Made by a program: the position numbers and the translations under genes. Source: an uncultured archaeon (lineage in GTDB: Archaea > Altiarchaeota > Altiarchaeia > IMC4 > SCGC-AAA252-I15). From it: DNA of 64,000 bases. The DNA is taken from the NCBI GenBank assembly GCA_964587725.1, contig CAZPLO010000004.1:16323-80322 (forward strand), given 5' to 3'. The notes beneath the pieces are model-generated. The model saw only the letters and a program-made list of their open reading frames with translations, was not told where the DNA came from and did not search any database. Shown here piece after piece: positions 41,385 through 55,832 of this stretch (position 1 is its first letter; every line of letters begins with the position of its first letter).

Positions 41385-42584
41385 TTACTGCGGCTTATCC
41401 AGCATGCGGGAGACCGCCACCGCAAGCAGGCACACCGCCCCGGCCGGGATGAACGCCCACAGGTAGCTGCCGGTCATATCGAAGACGCTGCCCGCCAGTA
41501 TCGGCCCCGCTATGCCCGCTACACCATATGCGGTGAACACGAGCCCGTAGTTGACTCCCACGTTCTTGGTGCCGAAGAAATCCGCGGTGGCGGACGGGAA
41601 CAATGCGAAGTTGCCTCCGAAGTTGAACCCCACCCACGCGGCCGCCACCGTCAAAAGAAGCTCCGACGACCCCATGTTAATCAACGCGAGCATCATCAAC
41701 CCCTGGAGCAGGAACATCAGTGACATCGCGTTCTTCCGCCCCATCCGGTCGGAGACCGCACCCCATATTATGCGGCCGGCTCCGTTGAACAGAGCAAGCA
41801 CGCCGACTGCGTTGCCGGCGACGGCGGGGGTGAGGCCACTGTATACTCCGTAGGGCTTCAGTATCCCAATCACCATCAACCCGGCGGCTGCTCCGAAGAT
41901 GAACATGAGCCAGAGCATCCAGAACTGCCGTGTCCCGAGCATCTCACGGTATTCGAAGTCGACCTTCGAAACCGTTTCCTTCGCCTCCGGGGGACTCCAG
42001 TTCGAGGGCTTCCAACCCATCGGCGGGTTCTTCAGCAACTGCGCGCCGGCAACCACTGCCAGCAAAAATATTATGCCGAGGTTGGTGAACGCCTGCAGTA
42101 TGCCGGATGACTCGATGAAGATGGTCGCGACCTTGGCGAACACCCACGCGCCCGCCCCGAATCCTGCGACCGCGAGGCCGGTTATCAACCCCCTCTTGTC
42201 GGGGAACCATTTCACGCACGCCGCAATCGGGCACACGTACGCTAGGCCTATGCCTGCGCCTCCGATGACGCCGAGGGTCAACGCCACCAATGGGAAGCTG
42301 CCGCCGGTGAAACCCGCAAGCAGGTATCCTGCTCCGAGGACCAAGCCGCCGGCGGTAGCCACGACGCGGGGGCCCCTGCAGTCCTGCTGCCGGCCAGCAT
42401 ACACCATCACCACCGCGAATGTTGCGAGGGCGAGGGAGAATATGATCTGGGTTTCGGTGGTGGAGTAGTCGAACGCGTCCTTCAACGGGTTCACGAACAC
42501 GCTCCAACTGTATATGGCGCCCAAACACAACTGTATGACGAGGGCGCCTGCCACAACCAGCCACCGATTGCCTGACATTTTCAC
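41385..42584 (-). CDS. MFS transporter, oxalate/formate antiporter (OFA) family
   Basis: RWLVVAGALVIQLCLGAIYSWSVF N-terminus typical of OFA. 12 TMs. Confidence 0.7.
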   Translation of the reverse strand: MKMSGNRWLVVAGALVIQLCLGAIYSWSVFVNPLKDAFDYSTTETQIIFSLALATFAVVMVYAGRQQDCRGPRVVATAGGLVLGAGYLLAGFTGGSFPLVALTLGVIGGAGIGLAYVCPIAACVKWFPDKRGLITGLAVAGFGAGAWVFAKVATIFIESSGILQAFTNLGIIFLLAVVAGAQLLKNPPMGWKPSNWSPPEAKETVSKVDFEYREMLGTRQFWMLWLMFIFGAAAGLMVIGILKPYGVYSGLTPAVAGNAVGVLALFNGAGRIIWGAVSDRMGRKNAMSLMFLLQGLMMLALINMGSSELLLTVAAAWVGFNFGGNFALFPSATADFFGTKNVGVNYGLVFTAYGVAGIAGPILAGSVFDMTGSYLWAFIPAGAVCLLAVAVSRMLDKPQ

Positions 42585-42602: not shown

Positions 42603-42616
42603 TTTAAATATTAAAG
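42603..42616 (+). promoter_or_regulatory. TATA-like element (tttaaatattaaag) upstream of the giant-ORF operon
   Basis: The only AT-rich block in the 65-bp intergenic spacer before ATG 42650. Confidence 0.35.
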
Positions 42617-42649: not shown

Positions 42650-45586
42650 ATGCACAAGCCCGTTGAACGCCCGCGCGGGAGGGGCGGAGAACCGGGAGCC
42701 CCCGACGACCGCGGAACAGAGGCGCAGAGGGACATCATAGTCGTAACCGCCCCCACAATCAAGGACAAACTGATGTATCAGGGGATGCTGCATGCCGCCC
42801 GTTTGAAGGGGCCGGAAGACAGGGACGCCATAAGGGTAGTCGACTACCTTGCCACGCATGTCCGGGGGTTCCGGAACGTCGACCCCGACCGTCAGAGGGA
42901 AAGCCTTATGGAGGCTGTCGGGGGGGACGTCGACGCCAAGGCCATATACGTCAAAGACGAGAGAGGTTTCGTGAGAAACGCGAACGAAATCCGGGAGTCG
43001 CTCCGAGAAGGCGACATGAAGGATGTGGTGAAGCTGCTGAAGGCCGTTGAGGGGAGGGTCCACCGGGACGAGTACCTGTTCTACAAAGGCATGGTGGACG
43101 ACTACGCCGCCGAACACTGGTCTGAAGGCCCTAAACCCGAGGGCTGGAGCGACTACGAAGGCATCAGGGGTGAAGTGGAGGATAACCCCCTGATGAGGCG
43201 CGGGAAACAGGACGTCGGATTGGGCAGACGGCAGATAGAGTTGGTTGAGGCTAGCATCGAGGCATACAACCGGGCTGCTTCCCCCATGCTTCAGGGAATG
43301 GACGGGGAAACCCAGAGGGAGGCCAGCGCCCTCACCTCCTGGATGATGATAGACGAGATGAGCGAGGAAACACGGCTGGAGACTGTGGAGAGGCTGAGGC
43401 GGGTGTCCGAATCCGACATAGGCGCCGGCGTGAAGACGGACGTCATGGGGGACATAGTGGGCAGAGGCCTTAACATAGAGGTGGAGAAGACCATGCTGTC
43501 GTGGGTGGATGAGGGCCCTGAAACGTTCTTCAAAAACATAAGCTACATGGAGGGGGCGTGGATGTTCTCCAGGCCCCCGCAGGAGGAGGTGGATGAGGTT
43601 AAGGGCATAGTTGACTCCCTCCCCGAAGGGGATGGGGAGCAGTTCCTGAAGACCTACGTCAGACTCATTAAAATACGGTCCCCCATAGCCACGGAAGACC
43701 CGGACCGGAAAAACCCCACAAGGCGGCGGTACGTGAGAGACGTTAAACATGCCGTCGACTCAGGAGATGAATTCGGGTGGGTGATTGGCAGATACCACTA
43801 CAGAGCCATGGTCAACGGACTAGTCAACGAACTGGACCTCCTGCCGTCTGACGGGAAGCTCCGGCTGATTACGGGACTATACGACCTCCGGGGGAACGCG
43901 GAAACAGGGGATGACATGAAGAGGGTGGCGCAGGTTCTGGAGGTCTGCGAGAGGATGGACCCCGCCCACCGGCTCCCGTCGGTTTCGGAGATGCTGGTTG
44001 CGACCGAGTTCCTGTGGGCGGCCGCCGGAAAAAAGCCAGGGGCGGAGGCGATGTACACTATGTCCCTGGTGGCGTCGAACCACGAGCACCTGGAAAACCT
44101 TTTCAGATACACGAAGATGGTTGATGACAGACAGTTCAGGAAGATGGTGGGTGAGCTTGCAGACACCTCCGCCCAGCCGGCGCAGACCATCGAGGGAGTA
44201 AGGGAGGACAGTTACGCGGAAGAATACGGCAAGATGCTTGACAGGGGGGAGGTGGAGGGTTTGAGCGAAGGCGAGATCGACCGGCAGAAACACATGTTCT
44301 CCCTGTACGGAATCCTGGCGGACGACATACGGTACATGGACGCGGTGGGGCGGGCCGCCAACAGCATCGCCGACGTTAGCCCCGGGGCTGCGAAGGCTTA
44401 CTGGAACACATACTATGTGGAGCCTGCGGAGACGCTGTGGGACGGCTCCCTCAACGAGGAGAGGATGGCGGTCGGAGAGCTCGTTGATTCCGTGGGCAGG
44501 ATAACGGACCACATGTTCATCGGCGCCTTCGTTGAACATTACGCCGAGAACCCCGGTTCCATTGAGAGGGTAAATGATTTGGACGGCATGAAAATCAGGG
44601 GCGAGAGCCTCTCCAAGGAGGTGGCGCTGGCCATGGGCAGGAGCCCCGAACACCTGAAAATCCTCGGAGGAGACACCATAGACAAACTCGCCGACAACTA
44701 CCACGGCGGACGATACCTGGTGGAGGAGTTCCTCGATAGTTTGAAGAACGACGAACTCAACATGGCGAGGGCGTACGACGCACTGCTCCACGCGGACAAC
44801 AGGACCGCACAGAAACTTCGGAACGATTACTTGAGGGGCGGGCTGGCTGACGCCGACCTCGAGGGGGTGGAGTTGACGGCAGAGAACATAGGGGACGAAT
44901 TGGAGAGGGTTGCTGGGGAGAAGAAGGCGCGGGAGGATGCTGAACGGAGGTTCCGGCAGACTGTTTCAAAGGAACTCGGTGCCGTCGGAAAGGACTACCT
45001 GCATCTGGCTGATGCCGTTCCGGTGCTGCGCACTCCGGAACATGTGGAGTCGTTCGGCAGGTTGTATAGCGGAGTCGGCGAAAGGATGAGGTCGAGGGTT
45101 GTGGGGCTGGCGTTGGATGCGGCTGAGAGGCGGAAGACTGAAACCGCGGCGGAAATCATGGAGTCGGCAGATCTCGCGTCAAAACTGGAGAGCCTGTCTA
45201 AGACGCCTTATGCGGCTAACAATTTCATGGACGTATTGTACGCGGCAGCGCTCACCTCGGATGAGGGGGAGTTCGACGCGGGGGTGCGGCGGGTCTTCAG
45301 ACTGCGCGAGATACAGGAGGCCCTGGTGGTTGAGGGGGTGCTCGACTTCACCGGCGTCAAAGACGAGATGAGGGGAGACGCGGTTGAGATGGTGTTGAAC
45401 ACACCGCTGAAGCAGCGGCCGTTCCTTACGGCACTGCCGACCTCCGAAATGCTTGAGCACGGGGAGGGGCTGCGGAGGTTCATGGACGAGAACCCACACA
45501 TCGTCGAAGCCATGTCCAACACCGTTTACGTTGAGGCGAGGGAAAACGGCAGAACATACGTTCTGGGAGGTGGCGGCGGTGAATAA
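42650..45586 (+). CDS. Giant hypothetical cytoplasmic protein 1 (978 aa), acidic, no recognisable domain
   Basis: Uninterrupted ORF with protein-like composition. Antisense ORFs are Pro/His/Arg-rich junk. The stop overlaps the start region of the next giant ORF. Confidence 0.6.
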   Translation: MHKPVERPRGRGGEPGAPDDRGTEAQRDIIVVTAPTIKDKLMYQGMLHAARLKGPEDRDAIRVVDYLATHVRGFRNVDPDRQRESLMEAVGGDVDAKAIYVKDERGFVRNANEIRESLREGDMKDVVKLLKAVEGRVHRDEYLFYKGMVDDYAAEHWSEGPKPEGWSDYEGIRGEVEDNPLMRRGKQDVGLGRRQIELVEASIEAYNRAASPMLQGMDGETQREASALTSWMMIDEMSEETRLETVERLRRVSESDIGAGVKTDVMGDIVGRGLNIEVEKTMLSWVDEGPETFFKNISYMEGAWMFSRPPQEEVDEVKGIVDSLPEGDGEQFLKTYVRLIKIRSPIATEDPDRKNPTRRRYVRDVKHAVDSGDEFGWVIGRYHYRAMVNGLVNELDLLPSDGKLRLITGLYDLRGNAETGDDMKRVAQVLEVCERMDPAHRLPSVSEMLVATEFLWAAAGKKPGAEAMYTMSLVASNHEHLENLFRYTKMVDDRQFRKMVGELADTSAQPAQTIEGVREDSYAEEYGKMLDRGEVEGLSEGEIDRQKHMFSLYGILADDIRYMDAVGRAANSIADVSPGAAKAYWNTYYVEPAETLWDGSLNEERMAVGELVDSVGRITDHMFIGAFVEHYAENPGSIERVNDLDGMKIRGESLSKEVALAMGRSPEHLKILGGDTIDKLADNYHGGRYLVEEFLDSLKNDELNMARAYDALLHADNRTAQKLRNDYLRGGLADADLEGVELTAENIGDELERVAGEKKAREDAERRFRQTVSKELGAVGKDYLHLADAVPVLRTPEHVESFGRLYSGVGERMRSRVVGLALDAAERRKTETAAEIMESADLASKLESLSKTPYAANNFMDVLYAAALTSDEGEFDAGVRRVFRLREIQEALVVEGVLDFTGVKDEMRGDAVEMVLNTPLKQRPFLTALPTSEMLEHGEGLRRFMDENPHIVEAMSNTVYVEARENGRTYVLGGGGGE

Positions 45587-48500
45587 ATTCTACAGGGTCG
45601 ACGACGGACGCCTGCGTGAAGAAGACCCTGATGCCGTCGGAGGGTTGAAACGGACCAGGGCAGATGTCAACGCCGAAAGGATAACGGAGGGTGAGGTGCC
45701 GCCGCAGTTGATGCCGCCTCTGATGCATGCTATGGCGGACGAGCCACGCCGCATGTACGACGCATACCTGTTCAGCGCCAAAAACCCGGAAGGCTTCGAA
45801 ACAGTCAATGGCCTCCTCAGGGACGGTAGGATAGATGCGGACGAATTCAACACAGCCGTGAAACTGGGGGTGGACCGGCCGGCGGCGTTCAAGGATTTGA
45901 AGGACGTCATCTCCGAAGGCGGTGAAATGGTGGAGCGGTCGAGACTCGTCCTGGCGGTGGCTGCCAGAGGCTATGACAGGTTCGTTGAAGACAGTCTGCT
46001 GGCGGCCATGGACGACGAGCTGGGACTGGAGGATGTGAGGAAGCTGACGCGGGAGCTGAAGGCTGGCGAGGTAGGGGAATCAGAACTCAAGGGTAAACTT
46101 GAATCCCTGTGGCCGCAGCCGGAACCCCTGGAGCAGGAAGTCCGGGAGGTGGTGCAGCCGGAGGTACGTGAGCCGGAGATCACGCCGGAGGAGAGGAAAG
46201 CCAACCAGGTTGAAGACAGCATAATGACCACCTTCCCCGACGAGCACTGGAACCGGGCCGCCGACGCCTACGCCAGGTTCAAGGACGGCGGCCACAGCCT
46301 CACCGAAACCGAATGGCGGGACGTATTCCACGCCGTCGGGAGAACCCATGAAGACCGTTTCCCGGAGGAGAAGATACTCTATTTTGAAAACATGATGGCG
46401 CAGCCGGAGCACATAAGCATGTACGTGAACAATGAGAGACTCAGCAGGGCTTGGAAGCTGATGGAGGGTGTGGGCGCGGACATAAGATACAACCCAGACC
46501 AGGATTTCAGGAGGGAGTCGTTCAATACAGTATTCCTCAGAGAGCCCGAAGTCTTCCAGTTCCTGACAGGGGAAAAATCAGATTCCATAGGGGAAGCGGT
46601 TAATGGGGTGAGGGTTGTGTGCGGACGCGATAACGCGCTGAAGTACCTGAGGCACATTATCTCCCACCGCGGACAGGCGGACGTGCTTGCTGACGCGTCT
46701 CGGGTGACCAGGGCGGGTATGCTGGTGGACTCGGTCAATGAAGAGGAAGGCGGGTTGCGGGAGAGAGCATTCTATGACGTGTTCCTGTCCGAACCCGGCG
46801 ACTTCCAGCTGCTGACGGGAGAGATGGCAGGCGGCCTCCGGGAGGCTGTGTCGACGGTGGACTCCCCCGTCGAACACCGGCTGAGGTTCCTAGAGCACAT
46901 GCTGTCACCGGAAGACCCCGGCAGAGACTACATGGAGGCTGTGGCGGACGGCAAAAGCTTCGGCATCGCGGCGAACGTCATGGACGGCCTGCGGCACATC
47001 ACCCACGAATTCAACAACGGCAGGGGCGTGTTCAAATCCGACGAGGCGCTGGCGGAGGCAATGGCGGGATACGGCCTGGAGGGAAGATACGACGACATGG
47101 TGTTCGAGAGCGTGTTCATCCGCTCCCCTGACACCTTCAGAAGAATCGCCAGCGGGAAATCCCACGAGGCCATGAGGGAGATACTGACGGACAACGATAA
47201 AATCCGGAGTGCGGGCCACTACATGAAAGACTACATACTGCTGCTGGGCAAGAGACCCGAGGTGCTGGGGAACTTCATAGAGGTGGAGGAGGGCAGGATC
47301 ATATGGGCGGACAGGATACCCGTGTACATCAGCGCAGTCTCGCGGCTGCAGGACGGGGACAGACGCGTTAAACGGTACTTCCATGCGATGATGGGCGGCA
47401 GCGAATACGCGACGGCTTTGAGCAACCCCGAAGTCATCGACAGAGCCCTTGGCTACCTCCGAGACCCCAACGTTATGCGCTACCTGCAGCCGACTACGGC
47501 AGTGCACCCCGACTTCATGGCCATGGACAGGGAGGAGCAGGCGGCTGAGCTGAACACAGTCCGCAGAATCATAGAGGAGGAAGAGAGGGTTGAGGCTCCT
47601 CATAGGGAGGGGCCTGGGGTCAAGGAACCCCGGCGACGGGAGAGGGAAGCCGGCGTGGAGAGGGAACGCAGGCCTCTGAGGCTGACCACAACGTTGCACG
47701 GGGTTATGATACCGAATCCCGAGTACGCGTCGATGGAGTGGGAGGGAGTGGACTCCGAGGTCCGGAGCATGTTCACGTTGAACACCACCCACATGAGCGC
47801 GAGCGAGATAGGGAAGCTCAGGGAGCTGAACCTGCCGTACCACCAGTCGCTGATATTCAACGTGCTGACCAACGTCAGCGGCAGACTGGAGGCTTCAGTG
47901 GACGAACTTCAGAGGATTATGATGATGCATCCGCTGGTGGGCGTGGTCTACGGAGGCGAGGGGGGCAGGGACAACCTGCTCGCCGACATACGGGCCATGA
48001 GCGAAGGAAACATGCCCCTCTACGCCGCAGGGGGCGTTGTGGGCATAAGGGAGGATTACACCAACATAGGCAGGACCGACGTCGGCGAAGCCAGGGGCAG
48101 CATCATGCGGGAGGCGGGAGGCGAAGACCAGGTCGCCGTACTGACTGCACTGGCGGAGTCAGAGGACCATCACGCCAGGATAGACGACGTCATAACCAAG
48201 GTGGCGGGCTTCACGGGCCGGCACCCCTCCGACATTTCAGACACAGTCAGGGGGGTGGTGGGCGAGCTGAAGAAGCAGGGTGTTTTGGTGAACGCGGAAC
48301 CCACGGGCAACGAGGTGTTGTTGAGCCCGTCGTTCATAGCCGAGGTCCAGGGCATGAAGGTGCCTGAGGCCTACTGGAGCACGTACCGGCACGTGGTGGA
48401 TCCGCTGGCGAGGGTGCGTGGCATGTATTTGGCTGAGTTCGGAGACGAACCCGGCGTAGAGGACTTCAACCCCCGTATGGTGTCAACAGAGCAGGGGGTG

Positions 48501-49208
48501 CGGGATGCGGTCGCGATGTTCAGCAGCAGGGACGACGCCATCATAACACGGAGGCTGGCTCTGCTGAAGATTATGTCCAGGCTGAACCTGGACCTGAACC
48601 ACGGCGCCAAGCTGGAGAACATCAGGAGGCATGCGGGTGAGGCGGGGTTGAGCGACACGATGGTGAACAGGGTGCTACCGCAGCTGGTGGACGACAGGGA
48701 AGGCGTGTTGCAGAGGGTGGCGCTCGGATACTACAGGATAAACCCGCGATACTGGGCCAAGAAGGAGACCGTCTACGGGGAGATAGAGTACGGTGAGTTC
48801 GACCGCACGAATCCGGAGATGCATGGGAACATAGACGGTGAACGAGTGGAGGCAGATGTGATGAGAAAAGTGGATGAGAGGGACGTGGGGGATGCTATGA
48901 CGCTTCTGAAATCCATCTCCCACCAGCACCGGCGGAGACGGTACTGTGCGAGAGCCAGCGACCTCCGGGATTTGATGAGGATGTGGGGGGTTGACGTCTC
49001 ACTGGAGGATGTGACACGCGACCTTGACGCCCTAGGGAAGAGCATCGAGGCGCCGGTGCGGGTGAGGGACAGGTGGGTGGACGGTGAACTGGTTCAGGAG
49101 GAGGTGCCCGTGGGCGCGTCGTATCCTCCGCTGGTTGACAAGTATTCGCCGCCGGAGGCGTCTCAAGAAAGATATTTCATATTCAACCCCAGCGGACACT
49201 ACAGCTGA
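45579..49208 (+). CDS. Giant hypothetical cytoplasmic protein 2 (about 1210 aa) with three internal repeats of about 90 aa
   Basis: A likely GTG start at 45579 (or 45570) is preceded by GGAGGT at 45565-45570 and overlaps the upstream TAA, so the listed ORF from 45453 is probably over-extended. Repeats FNTVFLREPEVFQFLTGEKS, FYDVFLSEPGDFQLLTGEMAG and FESVFIRSPDTFRRIASGKS. Confidence 0.6.
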   Translation: MNKFYRVDDGRLREEDPDAVGGLKRTRADVNAERITEGEVPPQLMPPLMHAMADEPRRMYDAYLFSAKNPEGFETVNGLLRDGRIDADEFNTAVKLGVDRPAAFKDLKDVISEGGEMVERSRLVLAVAARGYDRFVEDSLLAAMDDELGLEDVRKLTRELKAGEVGESELKGKLESLWPQPEPLEQEVREVVQPEVREPEITPEERKANQVEDSIMTTFPDEHWNRAADAYARFKDGGHSLTETEWRDVFHAVGRTHEDRFPEEKILYFENMMAQPEHISMYVNNERLSRAWKLMEGVGADIRYNPDQDFRRESFNTVFLREPEVFQFLTGEKSDSIGEAVNGVRVVCGRDNALKYLRHIISHRGQADVLADASRVTRAGMLVDSVNEEEGGLRERAFYDVFLSEPGDFQLLTGEMAGGLREAVSTVDSPVEHRLRFLEHMLSPEDPGRDYMEAVADGKSFGIAANVMDGLRHITHEFNNGRGVFKSDEALAEAMAGYGLEGRYDDMVFESVFIRSPDTFRRIASGKSHEAMREILTDNDKIRSAGHYMKDYILLLGKRPEVLGNFIEVEEGRIIWADRIPVYISAVSRLQDGDRRVKRYFHAMMGGSEYATALSNPEVIDRALGYLRDPNVMRYLQPTTAVHPDFMAMDREEQAAELNTVRRIIEEEERVEAPHREGPGVKEPRRREREAGVERERRPLRLTTTLHGVMIPNPEYASMEWEGVDSEVRSMFTLNTTHMSASEIGKLRELNLPYHQSLIFNVLTNVSGRLEASVDELQRIMMMHPLVGVVYGGEGGRDNLLADIRAMSEGNMPLYAAGGVVGIREDYTNIGRTDVGEARGSIMREAGGEDQVAVLTALAESEDHHARIDDVITKVAGFTGRHPSDISDTVRGVVGELKKQGVLVNAEPTGNEVLLSPSFIAEVQGMKVPEAYWSTYRHVVDPLARVRGMYLAEFGDEPGVEDFNPRMVSTEQGVRDAVAMFSSRDDAIITRRLALLKIMSRLNLDLNHGAKLENIRRHAGEAGLSDTMVNRVLPQLVDDREGVLQRVALGYYRINPRYWAKKETVYGEIEYGEFDRTNPEMHGNIDGERVEADVMRKVDERDVGDAMTLLKSISHQHRRRRYCARASDLRDLMRMWGVDVSLEDVTRDLDALGKSIEAPVRVRDRWVDGELVQEEVPVGASYPPLVDKYSPPEASQERYFIFNPSGHYS

Positions 49209-49263
49209 AGTTTAAATTATTTTGAATTTTTTATAAATTATTTATAAAATATTCTAAATTTTT

Positions 49264-50148
49264 TCAACTCGATTTGATGCCGGAGAACAGAGCCAGAACC
49301 TCCACCCCCTCGGCGCTGTCGTCGACCGTGTTAGTCCATATGAGGCTGGCTTCCCCTGCCTCCGCGGATATCCTGTCCAGCGCATCCTGCAGGCCGCGCA
49401 ATGCCTTGGAGTGGGTGGTGAAGTTCAGCAACACCCCGGACGCGGTGCCGACGTCCCCGCCTACGAGCGGAGAAGACAGCGCCGACTCAACCGCCTTGGC
49501 CAGGGTGGGTCCGACTCCGTGGCCGATGGCCCCGTAGCCGGTGAGCAGCGGCCGCAGGTTATCGAGGCCGGAGTCGATTATCAGCTTCACCATGCCACGG
49601 ACAGCCTCCAACAGCAGGTGGTTGACTTTCGTGAACGCATCCCGTATCGACAAATCCGGAACCACCTTCAGGAAACGGTCGTTCTCTATCACCACTATCA
49701 GGTCGCAGTAGGGGTGGAGGTTGTCGAGCGCGGCTTTGGCGTTGCTCCTGCACACCTTCCCCTCCGCAGTGAACGGTGTGTTCACGAAAGCCACAACGGT
49801 GCTGCCGTGCTCCTTCGCAGCCTCCGCCACAATCGGCGACGCCCCCGCGCCGGTGCCGCCCCCTATGCCCGCGATGACAAAGGTTGCTTCCGCGCCGGCG
49901 AGCACGCCCGCCAGTTTGTCGCGGTCGCCTATGGCTGCCTGCTCCCCCAGCATGATGTTGTTGCCGGTGCTCCTCCCCTTGGTGACATCCCGTCCAATCA
50001 ACACCTTGGTGGGGACCTTACGTTCCAGCAGGGACATTGCGTCGGTGTGTACGGCTATGAGCTCGCAGCCGCATTCACCCATGCGCTCCACGGTCGCGCA
50101 CCCGCTGCCTCCGACCCCCACCACCTTGATTGCGTGCCCGGAAGACAT
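49264..50148 (-). CDS. ftsZ: FtsZ/tubulin-family GTPase, compact (294 aa, no C-terminal linker/tail)
   Basis: IKVVGVGGSGCATV (G1), GGGTGAG (T4 tubulin signature), DLIVVIENDRFL (FtsZ NDxxL). The C-terminal domain ends VEVLALFSGI. The T7 region GLDNLRPLL is divergent from GLINVDFADV. Confidence 0.7.
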   Translation of the reverse strand: MSSGHAIKVVGVGGSGCATVERMGECGCELIAVHTDAMSLLERKVPTKVLIGRDVTKGRSTGNNIMLGEQAAIGDRDKLAGVLAGAEATFVIAGIGGGTGAGASPIVAEAAKEHGSTVVAFVNTPFTAEGKVCRSNAKAALDNLHPYCDLIVVIENDRFLKVVPDLSIRDAFTKVNHLLLEAVRGMVKLIIDSGLDNLRPLLTGYGAIGHGVGPTLAKAVESALSSPLVGGDVGTASGVLLNFTTHSKALRGLQDALDRISAEAGEASLIWTNTVDDSAEGVEVLALFSGIKSS

Positions 50149-50149
50149 T

Positions 50150-51064
50150 CTATTTCAGCATCTGCCCTTCATCGGAGAACATGGACTCCAGCCACTTCAT
50201 CAGCTCCGGGCCCCCACGCCGGATTGGCTGGCTGGACAGCACCTCCTTGAACACCATGTCGGAGGTTTCATCCGGTTCCCTCTCACCCCCGAGTACCTGA
50301 GCGGCATCGCCAAGGAGTTCACCCGGCTTCTTCTCCACCCCCCGATCTGCAAGCTCATTGGCCAGCTTCTCCGACGAATCAGCCATGGCCAAAACCATCT
50401 CCTGCCGGCTTTCCGGCACACCCTGCTCCGTCAGAAGCCTCTTTGCCTCGTCCCTGCCTTCTGCAGCGGATTCCACAACAGCCTTGGCAGCCTCCAGGTT
50501 AACGACCATGTCGTCCGCGCTCGCCTTCACACGCATATCAGACACCTGGTCGTCGAGCACGCTGTTAATCTTCTCCTCCGCACCGGGAAGCTTCGATGAG
50601 TCGACTCCGCGCGACGTCTGAATGACCTCCGCCGCCACGGTGCCCTCGGCGGTGCGGGCCATCTCGTCCGCCTCCCCCGGAGTCACATTTATGGAACCCT
50701 CGCGGTTGGCTATGGACCAGGTCTCCCGGCCGAGGTCTTCAGCACCTGTCAAATCCCCCTGCGAAGCCATGGACTCCGAAGCCACCGCGGTCCTCAGCTC
50801 AGTGTCGGTCGTCGCCTGGTCCTGCCCCCCGGTGTCGAGCAATGACTTGTTACGTCCCACGGGGCTGCCGGGCCTGTCCAGTTCGGGGGCCTTCTCCAAT
50901 TTCACCCCGTGGCCGGCCTCGACCCCCACCAACTGCTCATTCAACCTTTTTTTCTCGTCCGGCGGCAGCTGCCTCCTTAACTCCTCGGCGGACACCCTAT
51001 CTGTCCCGGCCATTTCAGCCACGTCTTCGGCCGTGGGCCTACGCTTCAACGCCGTGTCCGCCAT
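50150..51064 (-). CDS. Acidic low-complexity (likely disordered) protein translationally coupled to the FtsZ-like gene
   Basis: Internal ATG of ORF 50150..51553 (the upstream extension overlaps the divergent promoter and the + gene). 305 aa, rich in A, E, D, G, S and T. The C-terminal peptide PELMKWLESMFSDEGQMLK is amphipathic. Its stop lies 1 nt from the ftsZ-like ATG. Confidence 0.5.
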   Translation of the reverse strand: MADTALKRRPTAEDVAEMAGTDRVSAEELRRQLPPDEKKRLNEQLVGVEAGHGVKLEKAPELDRPGSPVGRNKSLLDTGGQDQATTDTELRTAVASESMASQGDLTGAEDLGRETWSIANREGSINVTPGEADEMARTAEGTVAAEVIQTSRGVDSSKLPGAEEKINSVLDDQVSDMRVKASADDMVVNLEAAKAVVESAAEGRDEAKRLLTEQGVPESRQEMVLAMADSSEKLANELADRGVEKKPGELLGDAAQVLGGEREPDETSDMVFKEVLSSQPIRRGGPELMKWLESMFSDEGQMLK

Positions 51065-51118
51065 AACGTTTAATACTGGGCAGTATGTACTTAAATCCGT
51101 TGAATCCAAGTTCAATAG

Positions 51119-52081
51119 ATGGAGAACGAGCTTCGGCGTGACTATTTTCTGGACCGCCATGTTATCATCGCGGTCGGGCGCGGGAAGCGGCCGACCGACT
51201 TCAAAAAAGATGGTGCGGCAGAGGATGGCGGGGGGAAGACCTGCTTCTTCTGCCCAGGCAACGAGCACACGACGCCACCGGAGATAAGCAGGGTTGAAGA
51301 GGACGGGAGGTGGGTGATACGGGTGTTCCCCAACAAATTCCCCGCGGTAACGAAGGAGGAGGGGGAGGCAGGAGAGTATCTGATGCCCGCCTACGGCGAC
51401 CACGAGGTGGTGGTGGAAAGCCCAGTCCACGGGGAGACGGTGGCGGACTTGAGCTTGAACAGGATAGCCCAGGTCCTGAAGGTGTACATGGAGAGGGTTG
51501 AGGCGATGCTGTCCGACCCGAAGGCAGAGTATGCGCTGGTGTTCAAAAACCACGGCAAAAAAGCTGGTGCGTCTCTAAGCCACACCCACACCCAGATAAT
51601 TTCGCTGCCGGTGGTGCCGGAGCTGGTCCGGGAGGAGGCTGACGCCGCCGACGCCCACATAACCTGGAAGGGCTCGTGTCCGCTGTGCGACGCCTGGAAA
51701 AAAGAATCCGGCGGGCCCAGGAGCGTGTGGGAGGACGAAAACGTCTCAGTATTCACGCCCTACGCCTCCAGATCCCCCATGGAGGCCTGGGTGGTGCCTA
51801 AAAAACACGCTCTCCAGCTGAGCGACTTGACGGGTGAGGAGATGGGAGGCATGGCCTATGGTTTGAAGCTGCTGCTGCAGTCTTTGAAGGAGAGGCTGGG
51901 AGACCCGGCATACAACATGGTCCTGCATTTAAGCCCCGCGGGAAGAGACCTCCACATGCACTTTGAACTGCTTCCTAGGCTTTCAAACTGGGCTGGGTTC
52001 GAACTGGGTTCCGGGATAATAATCAACAGCATGCCGCCGGAGACGGCTGCGGAGTTCTACAGGAGCGGAGAGGGTATTTAA
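51119..52081 (+). CDS. Galactose-1-phosphate uridylyltransferase-like HIT-superfamily nucleotidyltransferase
   Basis: CFFCPGNEHTTPPE zinc knuckle and HTHTQ (HxHxQ) catalytic motif. 320 aa. Confidence 0.7.
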   Translation: MENELRRDYFLDRHVIIAVGRGKRPTDFKKDGAAEDGGGKTCFFCPGNEHTTPPEISRVEEDGRWVIRVFPNKFPAVTKEEGEAGEYLMPAYGDHEVVVESPVHGETVADLSLNRIAQVLKVYMERVEAMLSDPKAEYALVFKNHGKKAGASLSHTHTQIISLPVVPELVREEADAADAHITWKGSCPLCDAWKKESGGPRSVWEDENVSVFTPYASRSPMEAWVVPKKHALQLSDLTGEEMGGMAYGLKLLLQSLKERLGDPAYNMVLHLSPAGRDLHMHFELLPRLSNWAGFELGSGIIINSMPPETAAEFYRSGEGI

Positions 52082-52104: not shown

Positions 52105-53982
52105 ATGAGGACTGCCCTGTCGCTGACGCTGGTCTTGCTTCTGACATGCTGTTCCGCAGCACAGGAACCCAGTGTCCTCACCCAGATGTGGGAGCAGAGC
52201 CCCATACCCCTCGGAGAAACCGCAGTGGTGGTGGACGCCTACGTGGGGGACCTGGACAACAACGGCGTTGAGGAAGCGTGCGTTGTTACGTCAGGGGTGG
52301 CGACCGGCCGGACCGCAACCCAGAAGAACAGGGTGGTGGCCTACGGCGCCAACGGCACAGTCTTCTGGACCTATGGAGTAGACGGCAGAGTGCGGGCCTC
52401 CGCCCTCTACGACATAAACAACGACCGCAACCTCGAGTTCATAGTTTCAAGCGGGGAGAAAATGAACCTGCTGCAGAGCGGCAGCATACGGGTGATAGGG
52501 GGTTTCGGAAACCTTCTGAGGAGTTTCAGCTCCAGCGCCATAGTAGATTCCATGTACGTGACCGACATGGACGGCGACAGATACTATGAGATAGTGGGTG
52601 GGGGCGTGAAGAGGGTGTTCCTGTACAGGAGCTTCGGGGAGAACATATGGCATTACCCCCCCGAAGGCGGGGGAGGATTCAACGTCTCGGTGAACGCCGT
52701 CCACTCAGCAGACATAAACGGCGACGGCGTAAGCGAAGTCGCGGCTGGAGCGGACAGGATATACTACATAGACTTGGAGGGAAACCTCATGGGTTCGGTG
52801 GACACGGAGCCGGAAGTCCACCAACTCAAGAAGGGATTCAAATACCTTGAGATGGTAAGGCTGGGCGGGGGAGGGTACCTGGACACCCTCGCCGTCACCG
52901 AATCGGACAGGATAGTGGCCGTCGGCGTGGAGGACGGCATGATGCAGCAGGATGTTTTTAAGATAAAGTTGAACATCCGCTGGACCACCGACCTCGGGTG
53001 CACCGTCAACGCCGTGGAGACATACAACATAGACACAGACGATTTCACAGAGGTGATAGTGGCGTGCTCCGACAACAAGGTCTACGCCATAGACAACAAC
53101 GGGTGGACTGTCTGGGAGTACCCCCTCGACGGGGAGCCCATGGACCTGTACATAAAGGACATGGACGGCGACGGCCTGGAAGACCTGTTGGTGGGGACTT
53201 CAAGCGGCTCCATCTACCTGCTCGACCTTTCAGGAGACTTTAAGTGGATACACAAGACCGGCTCCCCCGTGGTGAAGGTCGCCGCCGGGGACATCGACGG
53301 AGACAGGATGAACGAGGTGTTCGTGGTCTCGGAGGAGCCGCTGGCGAAGGCCTACGCGGTGAACGAGACATATACGCTTAGAAGGAGGGCGGACACCACC
53401 TTCAACATGGGTCAGGAAGCGTACATAACCTCCGACTACGACGACGCCCTCAAGTACTTCAGGGAGGCTTCGGACCTGTACAGGCGCCTAGGCAGTGAAA
53501 AAGGGGTTATGGATTCTCAGACCTTCATAGCCAAGATAGAGTCCAGGATACTGGAGGAGAGGAGGGCGGAGGCGGACATATTCTATGAGCGCGCGCAGGA
53601 CGCGTTCATCGCAGGCGACTATGCCGGAACACGGCAGCATGTGGGACGGGCGAAAGGCATATACGAGGAATTCGGGGACATAGACGGGGTAGTGAAGTGC
53701 GAGCTGCTGGAGGTGAGGATAGACCAGCAGACAGGGGTGGTTGAGCCCACGGTGACACTGCCCAGGTCCACCTCCACCACCGTCCCCGACACGGGCGGAG
53801 GCGGGGACAACACCCTCCTGATTATTCTCGCCGGAGGCGTGGGACTGCTCGCCGCCGTATTCATCATGAAAAGACGGTCGGCTGGCGCCGAAACCATAGA
53901 TGAGTCCGTGGACTCGTCCAAGGACGCGTGGGAGCGTGAGGTTCTCGGGTTGGACGATGAAACAGAGGAGGATGTGAAATGA
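52105..53982 (+). CDS. Surface protein: signal peptide, FG-GAP beta-propeller repeats, TPR-like helical repeats, C-terminal TM
   Basis: Signal MRTALSLTLVLLLTCCSAAQ. FG-GAP-like units (DLDNNGVEEACVVTS, DINNDRNLEFIVSSG, DMDGDRYYEIVGGG, DINGDGVSEVAAGA, DMDGDGLEDLLVGTSSG, DIDGDRMNEVFVVS). Helical units YDDALKYFREASDLYRRLGSEKG and YAGTRQHVGRAKGIYEEFGDIDG. Anchor LLIILAGGVGLLAAVFIM. Confidence 0.7.
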   Translation: MRTALSLTLVLLLTCCSAAQEPSVLTQMWEQSPIPLGETAVVVDAYVGDLDNNGVEEACVVTSGVATGRTATQKNRVVAYGANGTVFWTYGVDGRVRASALYDINNDRNLEFIVSSGEKMNLLQSGSIRVIGGFGNLLRSFSSSAIVDSMYVTDMDGDRYYEIVGGGVKRVFLYRSFGENIWHYPPEGGGGFNVSVNAVHSADINGDGVSEVAAGADRIYYIDLEGNLMGSVDTEPEVHQLKKGFKYLEMVRLGGGGYLDTLAVTESDRIVAVGVEDGMMQQDVFKIKLNIRWTTDLGCTVNAVETYNIDTDDFTEVIVACSDNKVYAIDNNGWTVWEYPLDGEPMDLYIKDMDGDGLEDLLVGTSSGSIYLLDLSGDFKWIHKTGSPVVKVAAGDIDGDRMNEVFVVSEEPLAKAYAVNETYTLRRRADTTFNMGQEAYITSDYDDALKYFREASDLYRRLGSEKGVMDSQTFIAKIESRILEERRAEADIFYERAQDAFIAGDYAGTRQHVGRAKGIYEEFGDIDGVVKCELLEVRIDQQTGVVEPTVTLPRSTSTTVPDTGGGGDNTLLIILAGGVGLLAAVFIMKRRSAGAETIDESVDSSKDAWEREVLGLDDETEEDVK

Positions 53983-55832
53983 GGTGTTGGACGGCCTTGG
54001 CTGTTTTGATGCTCGCAGCCTCGGCTGCGGCGGTGACTTCAGAGTTCGAAGCCGACAGCCTCTACCAGACCGCCGACTCGTTCTACAAGAGCGGAGACTA
54101 CGAGAACGCGTTGAAGAGCGCCCACTTATCCAGGAGAATCTACGAGGACATGGGGAACAGCTGGGGCGTGGACAGGGCCAACGCCCTCATCAACAACATA
54201 GAGTCTATGCTTTCGAAGAAGCAGCTGGCCGACACATACTACAACATAGCCGGCGACTACTTCCTGCAGACCCATCAGAACCCGGAGATAATGGACAGGG
54301 CGGTGAACATGGCCGGGAGGGCGAAAAGCCTTTATGAAGACCTCGGCGACTCATCCGGAGTACTGAAGTGCGAGGACCTTATTGAACGCGCCAACAACCG
54401 CATAGACGCCATATTCAACCAGTGCGTGAAGGAGGGGGACCAACTGTACCAGGACGCTCAGAGCAGCTTCTTCCTCCAGGAGTACGTGGACGCCCGGGAG
54501 TACGCTTTAATCGCAAGCGAGAAATACGCCAGCTGCCCGTACCAGCAGGGCATGGACAGGACAGACTCCCTGCTGTCGTCGATAAACGCGAAGATAAGAG
54601 AGATAAAGATAAACGCGCAGGCCAGCTACGACAAAGCCATAGACTACCTCGCCGAAGACGACTACGAACGGTGCAAGGAATATGCCGCATCCTCGCAGAG
54701 GCTGTTCCAGCAGATAGAGGATGACGAAGGCATCACCAGCGCGACCTCCCTGCTGACCAGATGCAACAGGGGCATCGTGGAGTGGGAGGAGGACATGGTG
54801 AGGCAGGCTGAGTCCTGCATGGCGGAGGCGCGGACATACTCCATAATACCCAACTGCCTCAACGCCACCGAGAAGGTCAGCTGCGCCAGAGACATCTACC
54901 AGGAACTCTACAGCTACTGGCGCGAAAGGGAGAAGGGACTGTCGGCACACCTGCAGGTTAAGACCGGATTATATCAGTCTTACCTCAGCGAAGTCAACGC
55001 ATTGAGTTCCAGCATAGACGCCACCTGCGGGGAGCAGAGGATGCTGGGGATAGCGGAGGACTTCTACCGGCAGAGCCAGGGATACTACCTCGAAAACGAC
55101 CTCAACGAGGCCATGTCCTACGCCAACAAGGCCAGGGAGCTTTTCGTCCAGTTCCAGAGATATGTGGGGATATCGAAGGTGGACTCCCTGATAGCGCAGA
55201 TAGAGGCGCGGATGAGGCAGCGGACGGAAGCGGATTCGTTTATGAAGAACGCGGAGTCATACTACACCACCGCAGCCTTCGAGGACGCGTTAATTGATGC
55301 TACCAAGGCCCGGACCATTTACTCGAACATGAAGGATGAGGAGAACATTCAGGCGGCGGAGGAGCTGATTGAGAGGATAAACAACGGCTCCCAGCGGCTG
55401 GACGCAGCCAACGGCCACTACAGCAGGGCCAGGAGCTATCTGGAGTCTGGGGACTACAGGAACGCCCTCGAATACGCGAGGCAGGCCGAGTCAGGGTATT
55501 CCGCAGTCAACTACACCCTCGGGGTCGCGGAGTCCCAGGCGATAATAGAGGAGAGCAGGGAGGCCTTGGCCGAGGACGAGGCCGCGTTCAGGAACACATT
55601 AATCATAATAGGGTTCATAGCGTTGGTGGCCGGCTTCCTGATTATACAGTTCATGCGCCGCCGGAGGATGATGGAGATGCAGTATGAGGAGCGGAAGGCC
55701 GAGGAGGAGGCTTTGACCAAGAGGCGTGACGAGGAATGGGCTCTCAGGAGAGAGGATGAGACCAAGACCCAGGTGGAGGACGAGCTCCGCAAACTCATAG
55801 AGGATGAGAGGAGCAAGGCGGAGGGGCCGTGA
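53979..55832 (+). CDS. Surface protein composed of about eight tandem 55-60-aa TPR-like helical repeats, with a C-terminal TM and charged tail
   Basis: ATGA overlap with the upstream gene. Signal MRCWTALAVLMLAASAAAV. Units such as YQTADSFYKSGDYENALKSAHLSRRIYEDMGNSWGVDRANALINNIESML and YYNIAGDYFLQTHQNPEIMDRAVNMAGRAKSLYEDLGDSSGVLKCEDLIERANNRIDAIF. Anchor LIIIGFIALVAGFLIIQFM, then a KR/E-rich tail. Confidence 0.65.
   Translation: MRCWTALAVLMLAASAAAVTSEFEADSLYQTADSFYKSGDYENALKSAHLSRRIYEDMGNSWGVDRANALINNIESMLSKKQLADTYYNIAGDYFLQTHQNPEIMDRAVNMAGRAKSLYEDLGDSSGVLKCEDLIERANNRIDAIFNQCVKEGDQLYQDAQSSFFLQEYVDAREYALIASEKYASCPYQQGMDRTDSLLSSINAKIREIKINAQASYDKAIDYLAEDDYERCKEYAASSQRLFQQIEDDEGITSATSLLTRCNRGIVEWEEDMVRQAESCMAEARTYSIIPNCLNATEKVSCARDIYQELYSYWREREKGLSAHLQVKTGLYQSYLSEVNALSSSIDATCGEQRMLGIAEDFYRQSQGYYLENDLNEAMSYANKARELFVQFQRYVGISKVDSLIAQIEARMRQRTEADSFMKNAESYYTTAAFEDALIDATKARTIYSNMKDEENIQAAEELIERINNGSQRLDAANGHYSRARSYLESGDYRNALEYARQAESGYSAVNYTLGVAESQAIIEESREALAEDEAAFRNTLIIIGFIALVAGFLIIQFMRRRRMMEMQYEERKAEEEALTKRRDEEWALRREDETKTQVEDELRKLIEDERSKAEGP

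Follow-up and report, generated by a model that had tools for sequence, protein, structure and literature searches.

Two very large genes that lie end to end in the analysed window, a 64,000-nucleotide stretch of Candidatus Altiarchaeota DNA, are tentatively read here, at somewhat less than even confidence, as a two-gene operon encoding both subunits of a scaffold or adaptor complex, cytoplasmic and non-enzymatic. The genes and the elements around them are as follows.

41385-42584, divergent from ORF1: MFS transporter gene, the 5′ neighbour of ORF1
42603..42616, + strand: TATA-box-like A+T-rich element TTTAAATATTAAAG, read from the sequence, 34-47 nt 5′ of the ORF1 ATG
42650..45586, + strand: ORF1, 978 aa, ATG start
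45566..45572, + strand: Shine-Dalgarno-like GGAGGTG within the 3′ end of ORF1, with 7 nt between GGAGGT and the ORF2 GTG
45579..45586, + strand: 8-nt stop/start overlap GTGAATAA, comprising the ORF2 GTG (45579-45581) and the ORF1 TAA (45584-45586)
45579..49208, + strand: ORF2, 1209 aa, GTG start, in an open frame spanning 45453..49208
49209..49263, no strand: A+T-rich spacer of 55 nt with an 11-nt tandem unit, between the convergent stops of ORF2 and the FtsZ-like gene
49264-50148, convergent with ORF2: FtsZ/tubulin-like gene, 294 aa, the 3′ neighbour of ORF2

ORF1 and ORF2 are real genes, and their codon usage resembles that of the host. Their relative synonymous codon usage (RSCU) correlates with that of 14 neighbouring genes at 0.92 and 0.88 in frame, compared to -0.35 to 0.51 out of frame, and their GC3 of 0.76-0.77 is that of the neighbouring genes. 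Because codon usage is frame-specific and GC3 is neighbour-like, they are not chance ORFs. The start of ORF2 at GTG 45579, proposed in an earlier note on this DNA, is borne out by a public gene call of the same 1209 aa and by alignment with the N-termini of relatives, which share the consensus MAKxxFxxxGGxLxxVDP. The overlap of this GTG with the ORF1 stop, and a suitably spaced GGAGGT before it, were likewise confirmed. The ORF2 frame is open for another 126 nt 5′ of the GTG, as might be expected if a sequencing frameshift had split one gene, or if the ORFs were spurious in GC-rich sequence; this reading retains virtually no probability. The peptide encoded by this extension (LSTGRGCGGSWTRTHTSS...) looks off-frame and has no counterpart in relatives, whereas the C-terminus of ORF1 and the N-terminus of ORF2 are both conserved. 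Moreover, the two families are unrelated by hhalign, an independent Logan assembly gives the same 978- and 1209-aa gene calls, and the stop/start overlap is found again in seven independently assembled loci. Together with the frame-specific codon statistics, this refutes the split-gene and spurious-ORF reading and upholds the claim of two separate genes.

When 1.84 billion representative proteins were scanned exhaustively with HMMER, only 10 relatives of ORF2 were recovered. Every named relative comes from a Candidatus Altiarchaeota metagenome-assembled genome, so that the pair is apparently restricted to this phylum among named relatives rather than distributed across archaea, a possibility raised in the earlier note. 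The pair does co-occur. In six of the seven independent related loci (L001, L004/L005, L006, L007, L008 and L009), an ORF1 relative lies immediately 5′ of the ORF2 relative and overlaps its start, at protein identities of only 17-35% among paired loci. The 8-nt overlap of the form NTGNNTRA occurs in the window, L001, L008 and L009, and also in L006 if GTG 7569 is used there, which places this geometry in four to five of seven loci; the overlap is 4 nt (ATGA) in L004 and 1 nt (TGATG) in L007. Purine-rich elements (GGAG, GGGAG or GGTGAGG) occupy the equivalent position in L001, L007 and L009. An overlapping stop and start with a Shine-Dalgarno-like element, kept in orthologous loci, identifies a translationally coupled pair, and ORF1 and ORF2 are very probably co-translated. 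Their conserved adjacency and overlap also suggest a physical complex. The stoichiometric complex of the earlier note stays conjectural: L009 carries three tandem ORF1 paralogues per ORF2, therefore strict 1:1 stoichiometry is not universal, and in contig L002 the 1.8 kb 5′ of the ORF2 relative contains no ORF1 relative.

From this arrangement we infer a single mRNA for both genes, which would start from the A+T-rich promoter region 5′ of 42650. The TATA-box-like element TTTAAATATTAAAG sits in the 65-nt divergent intergenic region common to ORF1 and the MFS gene, and could be a putative promoter for either. At the other end, the 55-nt spacer has T-runs on both strands and is likely a bidirectional transcription terminator. 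At the gene junction, the ribosome would end ORF1 at TAA 45584-45586 and re-initiate at GTG 45579, aided by GGAGGTG. Side-by-side synthesis of this kind could allow the two large proteins to assemble while emerging.

Neither protein has a recognizable motif, as the earlier note had stated, or a described family, and this holds in Pfam, NCBIfam, PHROGs, PADLOC and PDB sequences. Pfam contains no family matching ORF1 at E<=1 and gives only a sub-threshold WH2 match for ORF2, while NCBIfam, PHROGs and PADLOC return only noise-level matches far below threshold and PDB sequences return none. When each family member was scanned individually for known families, DUF7343 appeared in two of eight ORF2 relatives (E 0.002) and nothing matched the ORF1 relatives. 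Walker A, CxxC, HExxH and DEAD motifs are absent from ORF1 and ORF2, and Walker A, metal and nuclease motifs are absent from all members of both families. The two proteins contain 1 and 2 cysteines, respectively, with no TM-like segment (maximum KD19 of 1.03 and 0.81) and no signal peptide. Both are acidic as had been noted (pI 4.93 and 5.07), but this is not distinctive, since housekeeping proteins of the same genome have pI 4.6-6.1. The designation "scaffold" rests in part on this absence of catalytic signatures, and a novel active site would escape notice.

Structure models (AF2) were built from shallow alignments of 8-11 sequences with pTM of 0.42-0.51, and for this reason the inter-domain arrangement in them is unreliable. 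ORF1 is modelled as almost wholly α-helical apart from a small α/β element (aa 29-100), and its C-terminal tail VYVEARENGRTYVL is conserved and hairpin-like. Its fold has no PDB structural analogue beyond generic helices. In the scaffold reading, ORF1 would be a ~110-kDa α-helical platform whose fold has no PDB counterpart.

The ORF2 model (pLDDT 74.7, pTM 0.51) consists of a helical N-terminal arm followed by a C-terminal array of four winged-helix (WH) domains, with the following features.

45933..47588, + strand: all-helical region, aa 119-670, holding the repeats (DSSP of the AF2 model)
46119..46184, + strand: Pro/Glu-rich low-complexity linker, aa 181-202, predicted disordered (pLDDT <50 at model residues 171-192)
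46419..46727, + strand: helical repeat 1, aa 281-383, motif FNTVFLREPEVFQFLTGE at nt 46521-46574, conserved in relatives
46683..46982, + strand: helical repeat 2, aa 369-468, motif FYDVFLSEPGDFQLLTGE at nt 46770-46823
46974..47258, + strand: helical repeat 3, aa 466-560, motif FESVFIRSPDTFRRIASG at nt 47103-47156
47754..48047, + strand: WH module A, aa 726-823, conserved LPYHQ..I and HPL.G.VY
48081..48323, + strand: WH module B, aa 835-915, third helix with conserved V..R[IL]..L...G.[LI]V.
48471..48740, + strand: WH module C, aa 965-1054, conserved HGAKLE and wing LGYYRI, DUF7343 match in two of eight relatives
48837..49184, + strand: WH module D, aa 1087-1202, extended β-wing, conserved CARA.DL.DL with invariant R1125 and D1128

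Fold searches with the all-helical region found no PDB fold match above the WH matches. The P/E/K-rich linker varies in length among relatives, and it is the source of spurious profile matches to myosin light chain. The three internal repeats described earlier were recovered: the motif F..VF[LI][RS][ES]P..F[QR].[LI][TA][GS][GE] occurs exactly three times in ORF2, at aa 315, 398 and 509 (spacings of 83 and 111 aa), and hhalign self-comparison aligns repeat 1 with repeat 2 (E = 3e-5 over ~100 columns) and with repeat 3 (E = 0.017). F509 of repeat 3 is invariant across the family. The core insert of repeat 2 (aa 354-428) is absent from all seven full-length relatives (gap at A1 columns ~470-560), and its pLDDT falls below 50 because the region has no alignment depth. 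The three-repeat arrangement is confined to this genome, relatives having two copies, and repeat 2 is a lineage-specific tandem duplication of repeat 1.

The WH assignment of the C-terminal 480 aa, made from the AF2 model and fold searches, means that the description "domain-less" does not hold for ORF2. At the domain level, the modules show a three-helix bundle followed by a β-hairpin wing, superposable on known winged helices. WH domains often bind nucleic acid, and it is possible, though unlikely, that the pair forms a chromosome- or nucleic-acid-organizing complex in which the four WH domains bind DNA or RNA and ORF1 serves as a helical bridging arm. Models for such a complex include the four-WH C-terminal array of SelB, linker histone H1/H5, ORC/Cdc6 and a fused KITE-like tandem-WH dimer. 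The module C region has weak profile matches to MCM and SelB WH domains, the four modules amount to two tandem pairs as in KITE proteins, and the third helix of module B is conserved, basic and rich in Arg, so that DNA or RNA may be a ligand. However, each module carries a near-neutral or acidic net charge (-6 to +3) in a protein of pI ~5, and in modules A, C and D the third helix is not basic but acidic or neutral. In addition, no neighbourhood includes an SMC or other ATPase partner, Walker A is missing from both families, and Pfam gives no ScpB, MukE or kleisin match. The near-neutral modules and non-basic third helices fit protein docking better than sequence-specific DNA reading. In the scaffold reading, ORF2 would supply the helical-repeat arm and flexible Pro/Glu linker, and its WH array would probably be where partner proteins or nucleic acid dock.

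Several known systems resemble ORF2 in part. KITE proteins (ScpB, MukE, Nse1/Nse3) are tandem WH pairs that act as protein-protein adaptors, and ORF2 has the number of WH domains found in a KITE dimer, but with all four joined in a single chain that follows a long helical arm. Systems of the SMC-kleisin-KITE kind (ScpAB, MukEF, Wadjet JetAB) combine an adjacent SMC-type ABC ATPase, which has a long coiled coil, with kleisin/KITE profile matches; no locus has an SMC or kleisin gene, neither family gives such a match, and PADLOC, Wadjet included, is negative for the pair. The SelB C-terminal domain comprises four winged helices that bind SECIS RNA, and ORF2 likewise carries four consecutive C-terminal WH domains in a large protein; the SelB profile matches (E 0.15-0.35, at ORF2 profile positions 912-953) are below significance, and ORF2 differs in having no EF-Tu-like GTPase part and near-neutral or acidic WH surfaces. 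Extended WH arrays of the RPC62/Rpc82 (RNA polymerase III) and TFIIE/TFE type have no sequence similarity to ORF2. Compared to RPC62/Rpc82, ORF2 is two to three times larger, with a 650-aa helical arm and a giant helical partner, the matches span a single WH domain (~70-110 residues), and the pair is unlinked to RNA polymerase genes. Cullins are defined by cullin repeats, a cullin-homology domain, a neddylation WHB and a RING-box partner. The Foldseek match of ORF2 to CUL9 in this Cullin/APC2 comparison is not significant (E 0.12, TM 0.09-0.10), the F..VF...P..F hairpin motif that defines the ORF2 repeats has no relation to those of cullins, Pfam Cullin does not match, and there is no RING protein in any neighbourhood or ubiquitin-like system in that of the pair. 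Finally, MarR/Fur/TrmB-type regulators are small (~100-250 aa), dimeric proteins with one DNA-reading wHTH, unlike ORF2 with its 1209 aa, four WH domains and no Pfam or NCBIfam regulator match.

The genomic surroundings add further alternatives. The neighbours given in the earlier note, a transporter on one side and a convergent FtsZ-like cluster on the other, were verified. It is very improbable that the pair encodes accessory factors of the FtsZ-like protein in a cytoskeletal or division module, as its convergent adjacency to the 294-aa FtsZ/tubulin-like gene and the family-less acidic ORF accompanying that gene might suggest. Convergent genes are on different transcripts, and a tubulin/FtsZ gene adjoins the pair in none of the seven related loci; the proposed link is conserved in no related locus, which largely refutes this reading. 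The FtsZl1-type operon combines an FtsZ-like gene with a vWA protein, a divergent GTPase and OmpA-family/membrane proteins (Makarova & Koonin 2010, PMC2875224), and the vWA, GTPase and OmpA components are all absent here.

No third gene is conserved beside the pair, and the flanking genes differ in every locus. This variation, the tandem ORF1 paralogues in L009, the very high divergence and rarity, and the L006 neighbourhood (a PIN toxin, a DNA methyltransferase-like gene, a NikA-like gene and a KaiC-like ATPase) would suit fast-evolving, patchy and paralogue-expanding mobile-element cargo or a novel defence or conflict system. This is nevertheless improbable: context differences are expected between genomes so divergent, GC and codon usage are those of the host and show no compositional step, and the flanks of the window consist of housekeeping genes (LeuRS, asd, CarS, ProRS) and lack an integrase, tRNA edge or repeat boundary. 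In addition, the pair lacks nuclease, ATPase and other effector domains, has no PADLOC or PHROGs match, and has nothing related in viral contigs.

The Altiarchaeota, a deep-branching and uncultured group of archaea, have an unusual cell biology, and most genes specific to their lineage are blank. Against this background stands a 6.5-kb putative operon encoding ~245 kDa of protein per copy, kept as a unit at 17-35% identity, with no detectable relative outside the phylum among the 1.84 billion proteins scanned, and an ORF2 architecture (helical repeat arm and four winged helices) not catalogued elsewhere. In addition, the pair provides a clean natural case of conserved putative coupling by termination-reinitiation (NTGNNTRA) in archaeal genes of very large size. 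Its practical value now is as a defined target for testing, with two HMMs, the boundaries of the domains and, at the gene junction, a predicted interface region. More speculatively, and with little probability, the pair could be a new phylum-specific machine that organizes the chromosome, or tethers it to another cellular structure, without an SMC-type motor. Such a nucleotide-independent scaffold would join one to three copies of ORF1, a new α-helical fold, to an ORF2 whose helical arm bears a fused four-WH array equivalent to a KITE dimer, and would constitute a new class of prokaryotic architectural complex. In the preferred scaffold reading, if ORF1 and ORF2 do form a complex, it would be a candidate for a structural machine that defines the phylum, and would provide a new fold.

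Two giant genes, ORF1 and ORF2, overlap on the forward strand of the window and apparently form a two-gene unit that is conserved in, and restricted to, Altiarchaeota.

Features of the gene pair and its flanks (window positions)
41385-42584, divergent from ORF1: MFS transporter
42650-45586, + strand: ORF1, 978 aa, ATG start
45453-49208, + strand: open frame of ORF2; the in-frame GTG at 45579-45581 yields 1209 aa
45566-45572, + strand: SD-like GGAGGTG; 7 nt separate GGAGGT from the GTG of ORF2
49209-49263: convergent spacer of 55 nt, roughly 90% A+T, between the stop codons of ORF2 and the FtsZ-like gene
49264-50148, - strand: FtsZ/tubulin-like gene, 294 aa, convergent with ORF2
50150-51553, - strand: family-less acidic ORF, upstream of the FtsZ-like gene and 1 nt apart from it

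ORF1 and ORF2 are clearly both coding. Their RSCU correlates with that of 14 neighbouring genes at 0.92 and 0.88, respectively, compared to -0.35 to 0.51 for the other frames, and their GC3 is 0.76-0.77, as in the neighbours. Identical gene calls of 978 and 1209 aa are found in a separate public assembly (Logan SRR7048219). Coordinates, codon usage and this assembly thus bear out the two long overlapping + strand ORFs with an SD site that an earlier note had read from the sequence. The start of ORF2 is placed at GTG 45579 because the N-terminus of the family is conserved in the full-length alignment (MAKxxFxxxGGxLxxVDP), and this GTG gives an 8-nt overlap with the ORF1 stop codon TAA (45584-45586), GTGAATAA. 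The second public copy of ORF1 (P0004) carries one substitution compared to the window, M907R (45368-45370, codon 907), which is the sole difference and adjoins R908, one of three invariant residues in the ORF1 family.

It was claimed earlier that neither protein has a described family, and this holds: no family in Pfam, NCBIfam, PHROGs or PADLOC and no PDB sequence matches ORF1 or ORF2; against the PDB, sequence and profile comparisons alike gave no more than noise or weak winged-helix (WH) matches, and the literature searched does not describe the family. In word-indexed searches of 5.8 billion clusters, ORF1, ORF2 and an 8-sequence ORF2 alignment each recovered nothing but the query. The family becomes visible only when 1.84 billion representative proteins are scanned exhaustively by phmmer with ORF2 (aa 10-1209), which yields just 10 relatives (E 8e-148 to 4e-8) at 22-38% identity in the alignment and 27-43% across the matched stretches. 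Seven of these are full-length (1026-1265 aa), with homology from the first residues through the C-terminus. All named relatives of ORF2, and likewise of ORF1, are hypothetical proteins from Candidatus Altiarchaeota MAGs, so a spread across archaea at large is not seen, and an Altiarchaeota genome is the most likely source of the window. One published survey of hypothetical proteins specific to archaeal lineages states that Altiarchaeota could not be evaluated, because genomes passing quality control were lacking (PMC9258230). Two scans of metagenome contigs found nothing, although some relatives derive from JGI, and a scan of viral contigs found no relatives. Within the window there is no further ORF1 or ORF2 paralogue and no Rfam match, and the two proteins are not paralogues of each other (best blastp E 0.03, hhalign probability <1%). 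The 90%-identity cluster of ORF1 (P0001) also includes P0003, 53 aa long and encoded in a 963-kb bacterial genome (GCA_015473165.1, locus L010). This protein was considered as an ORF1 fragment, but it is a piece of an F-ATPase epsilon subunit, grouped there by a clustering artefact and no relative of ORF1.

DNA was recovered around eight ORF2 relatives (loci L001, L002 and L004-L009), of which L001 and L002 are two short loci from a genome-contig scan with alignment A2. The earlier question of whether the pair co-occurs is answered by an ORF1 relative directly upstream at every locus except L002.

ORF1 relatives directly upstream of ORF2 relatives, and their junctions
L001: tblastn E 1.7e-57; GTGGCTAA, 8-nt overlap
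L004/L005: 1180 aa, phmmer 1.4e-51; ATGA, 4-nt overlap (L004)
L006: 1109 aa, 2.4e-21; GTGCCTAA, 8-nt overlap if GTG 7569 replaces the called upstream GTG
L007: cut by the contig end, profile E 2e-12; TGATG, 1-nt overlap
L008: 1194 aa, hhalign probability 97.9%, E 3.5e-13, 690 columns; ATGCCTGA, 8-nt overlap
L009: 985 aa, 7.7e-45; GTGGCTAA, 8-nt overlap

Overlaps of stop and start codons by 1-8 nt thus recur in the related loci, and since they persist where the proteins are only 17-35% identical, they are strong evidence that ORF1 and ORF2 are translationally coupled, as was first proposed for the window alone. The same conservation across divergent loci excludes a frameshift artefact, and with it a single gene split in two. 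The sole exception to the pairing, L002 (1-5799, CAYXON010000080.1), is a 5.8-kb contig with no ORF1 on it; its 1178-aa ORF2 relative has an extra C-terminal extension of ~100 aa and is preceded by genes for a DJ-1/PfpI-family protein and an SDR. At L009 (2-8364, Logan SRR31558123), a single ORF2 relative follows three ORF1 paralogues in tandem (819+, 984 and 985 aa; 24-28% mutual identity); the genes are joined by a gap of 4 nt and overlaps of 14 and 8 nt. Subunit number or stoichiometry would therefore differ between lineages.

No third gene is conserved with the pair, and no other neighbour is kept across the related loci. The ORFs downstream at L004, L008 and L007 (343, 421 and 426 aa) are not related among themselves, nor to the 467-aa ORF of the window. 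Such varying contexts, together with the expansion of ORF1 paralogues, would fit a defence system or mobile element, but PADLOC, PHROGs and viral searches give this reading no support, nor does composition, and we consider it quite improbable. No compositional step occurs across the window, and the genes farther from the pair are archaeal housekeeping genes (LeuRS, aspartate-semialdehyde dehydrogenase, CDP-archaeol synthase, LarA, ProRS and SAICAR synthetase). A 794-aa ORF at 30769-33153 (+), flanked by an aminotransferase and the aspartate-semialdehyde dehydrogenase, has no Pfam or NCBIfam match and is unrelated to ORF1 and ORF2. At 52105-55832 (+), an FG-GAP beta-propeller protein (625 aa) is followed by an overlapping 617-aa TPR-like protein; the two have in common a ~120-aa segment (best 32% identity), present in four copies in the TPR-like protein.

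The immediate flanks are as first described, with a divergent transporter on one side and a convergent FtsZ-like gene on the other. The FtsZ-like protein matches Pfam Tubulin (1.2e-28) but reaches 199.8 bits against TIGR00065 ftsZ, below the cut-off of 295.2; it is short and without a C-terminal tail. In the ORF upstream of it, the first ~130 codons look non-coding and an internal Met is the probable real start. Together, the two genes may represent a divergent paralogue of FtsZ and a partner specific to the lineage. An FtsZ-associated function for ORF1 and ORF2, suggested by this proximity in the earlier note, is essentially refuted, as no FtsZ-like gene lies near the pair in the related loci. 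The intervening spacer, which contains an 11-nt tandem unit, TAAATTATTTA, in 4.9 copies and T-runs on both strands, suggests a bidirectional archaeal terminator.

Both proteins were described as acidic and free of recognisable motifs. The pI values are indeed 4.93 (ORF1) and 5.07 (ORF2), and the motif scans are empty: there is no TM-like segment, Walker A, CxxC, HExxH or DEAD motif in either protein, which have one and two Cys, respectively, and catalytic, nucleotide-binding, metal-binding, membrane and secretion signatures are absent in every family member. Such acidity is ordinary here, however: the window's housekeeping proteins range from pI 4.6 to 6.1. The three internal repeats reported for ORF2 are real. 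The motif F..VF[LI][RS][ES]P..F[QR].[LI][TA][GS][GE] occurs exactly three times (aa 315, 398 and 509; nt 46521-47156), and profile self-comparison supports units of ~100 aa (repeat 1 against 2, E = 3e-5; repeat 1 against 3, E = 0.017). The aligned relatives have two copies, matching repeats 1 and 3, and repeat 2 lies within an insert (aa 354-428) missing from all of them; repeat 2 arose from repeat 1 by a recent tandem duplication.

"Domain-less", the earlier description of both proteins, fails for ORF2. Its AlphaFold2 model (11-sequence alignment; mean pLDDT 74.7, pTM 0.51) begins with ~60 low-confidence residues and continues with helices at ~aa 119-670, broken by a disordered Pro/Glu linker (aa 181-202) and the low-confidence lineage-specific insert. 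In the model, each helical repeat starts with a helix-Pro-turn-helix hairpin, to which the repeat motif maps. A basic linker then leads to four helix-helix-helix-strand-strand modules, mostly at pLDDT 75-92, which are predicted WH domains: A (~aa 726-823), B (835-915), C (965-1054) and D (1087-1202). Weak profile matches to the WH domains of MCM and SelB and to Pfam DUF7343 are consistent with these. ORF1 is predicted to be all-helical. Both models were built on shallow alignments; domain folds are credible, inter-domain geometry is not. The ends flanking the junction (window 45530-45625), VYVEARENGRTYVL of the ORF1 C-terminus and KFYRVDDGRLREEDP of the ORF2 N-terminus, are both conserved and resemble beta-hairpins, with low pLDDT when each protein is modelled as a monomer; they may be elements of an interface between the subunits.

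Net charges of the WH modules, from -6 to +3, are close to neutral, and the third helix is acidic or neutral in A, C and D; for this reason, protein docking is the favoured role of the array. Module B has a conserved V..R[IL]..L...G pattern in its third helix. Nucleic-acid binding by the array, the main rival, appears unlikely. We propose that ORF1 and ORF2 would be co-transcribed from an A+T-rich region at 42603-42616, with the transcript ending in the 55-nt spacer, that ORF2 would be translated via termination-reinitiation, and that the products may assemble into a heteromeric scaffold. This scaffold model has, in our judgement, a little less than an even chance of being correct.

The nearest analogies are architectural and not homologous. 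They are multi-WH scaffolds: RPC62/Rpc82, TFE/TFIIE, the SelB C-terminus, the cullins, whose helical repeats precede WH domains, and, from SMC complexes, the KITE proteins with their tandem WH domains. The WH fold of single domains is all that is shared with these systems: there is no profile match, whole chains give no significant structural match, and the pair lacks an SMC, RING or GTPase partner. Coupling, pairing and the lack of a described family thus stand from the original reading, while its domain-less proteins, archaea-wide scope and FtsZ link do not. On purely computational evidence, none of the described families or systems tested accommodates the pair. It constitutes a well-delimited, conserved 245-kDa module of narrow, apparently phylum-specific distribution, in which one fold is unmatched and the multi-WH architecture is novel.
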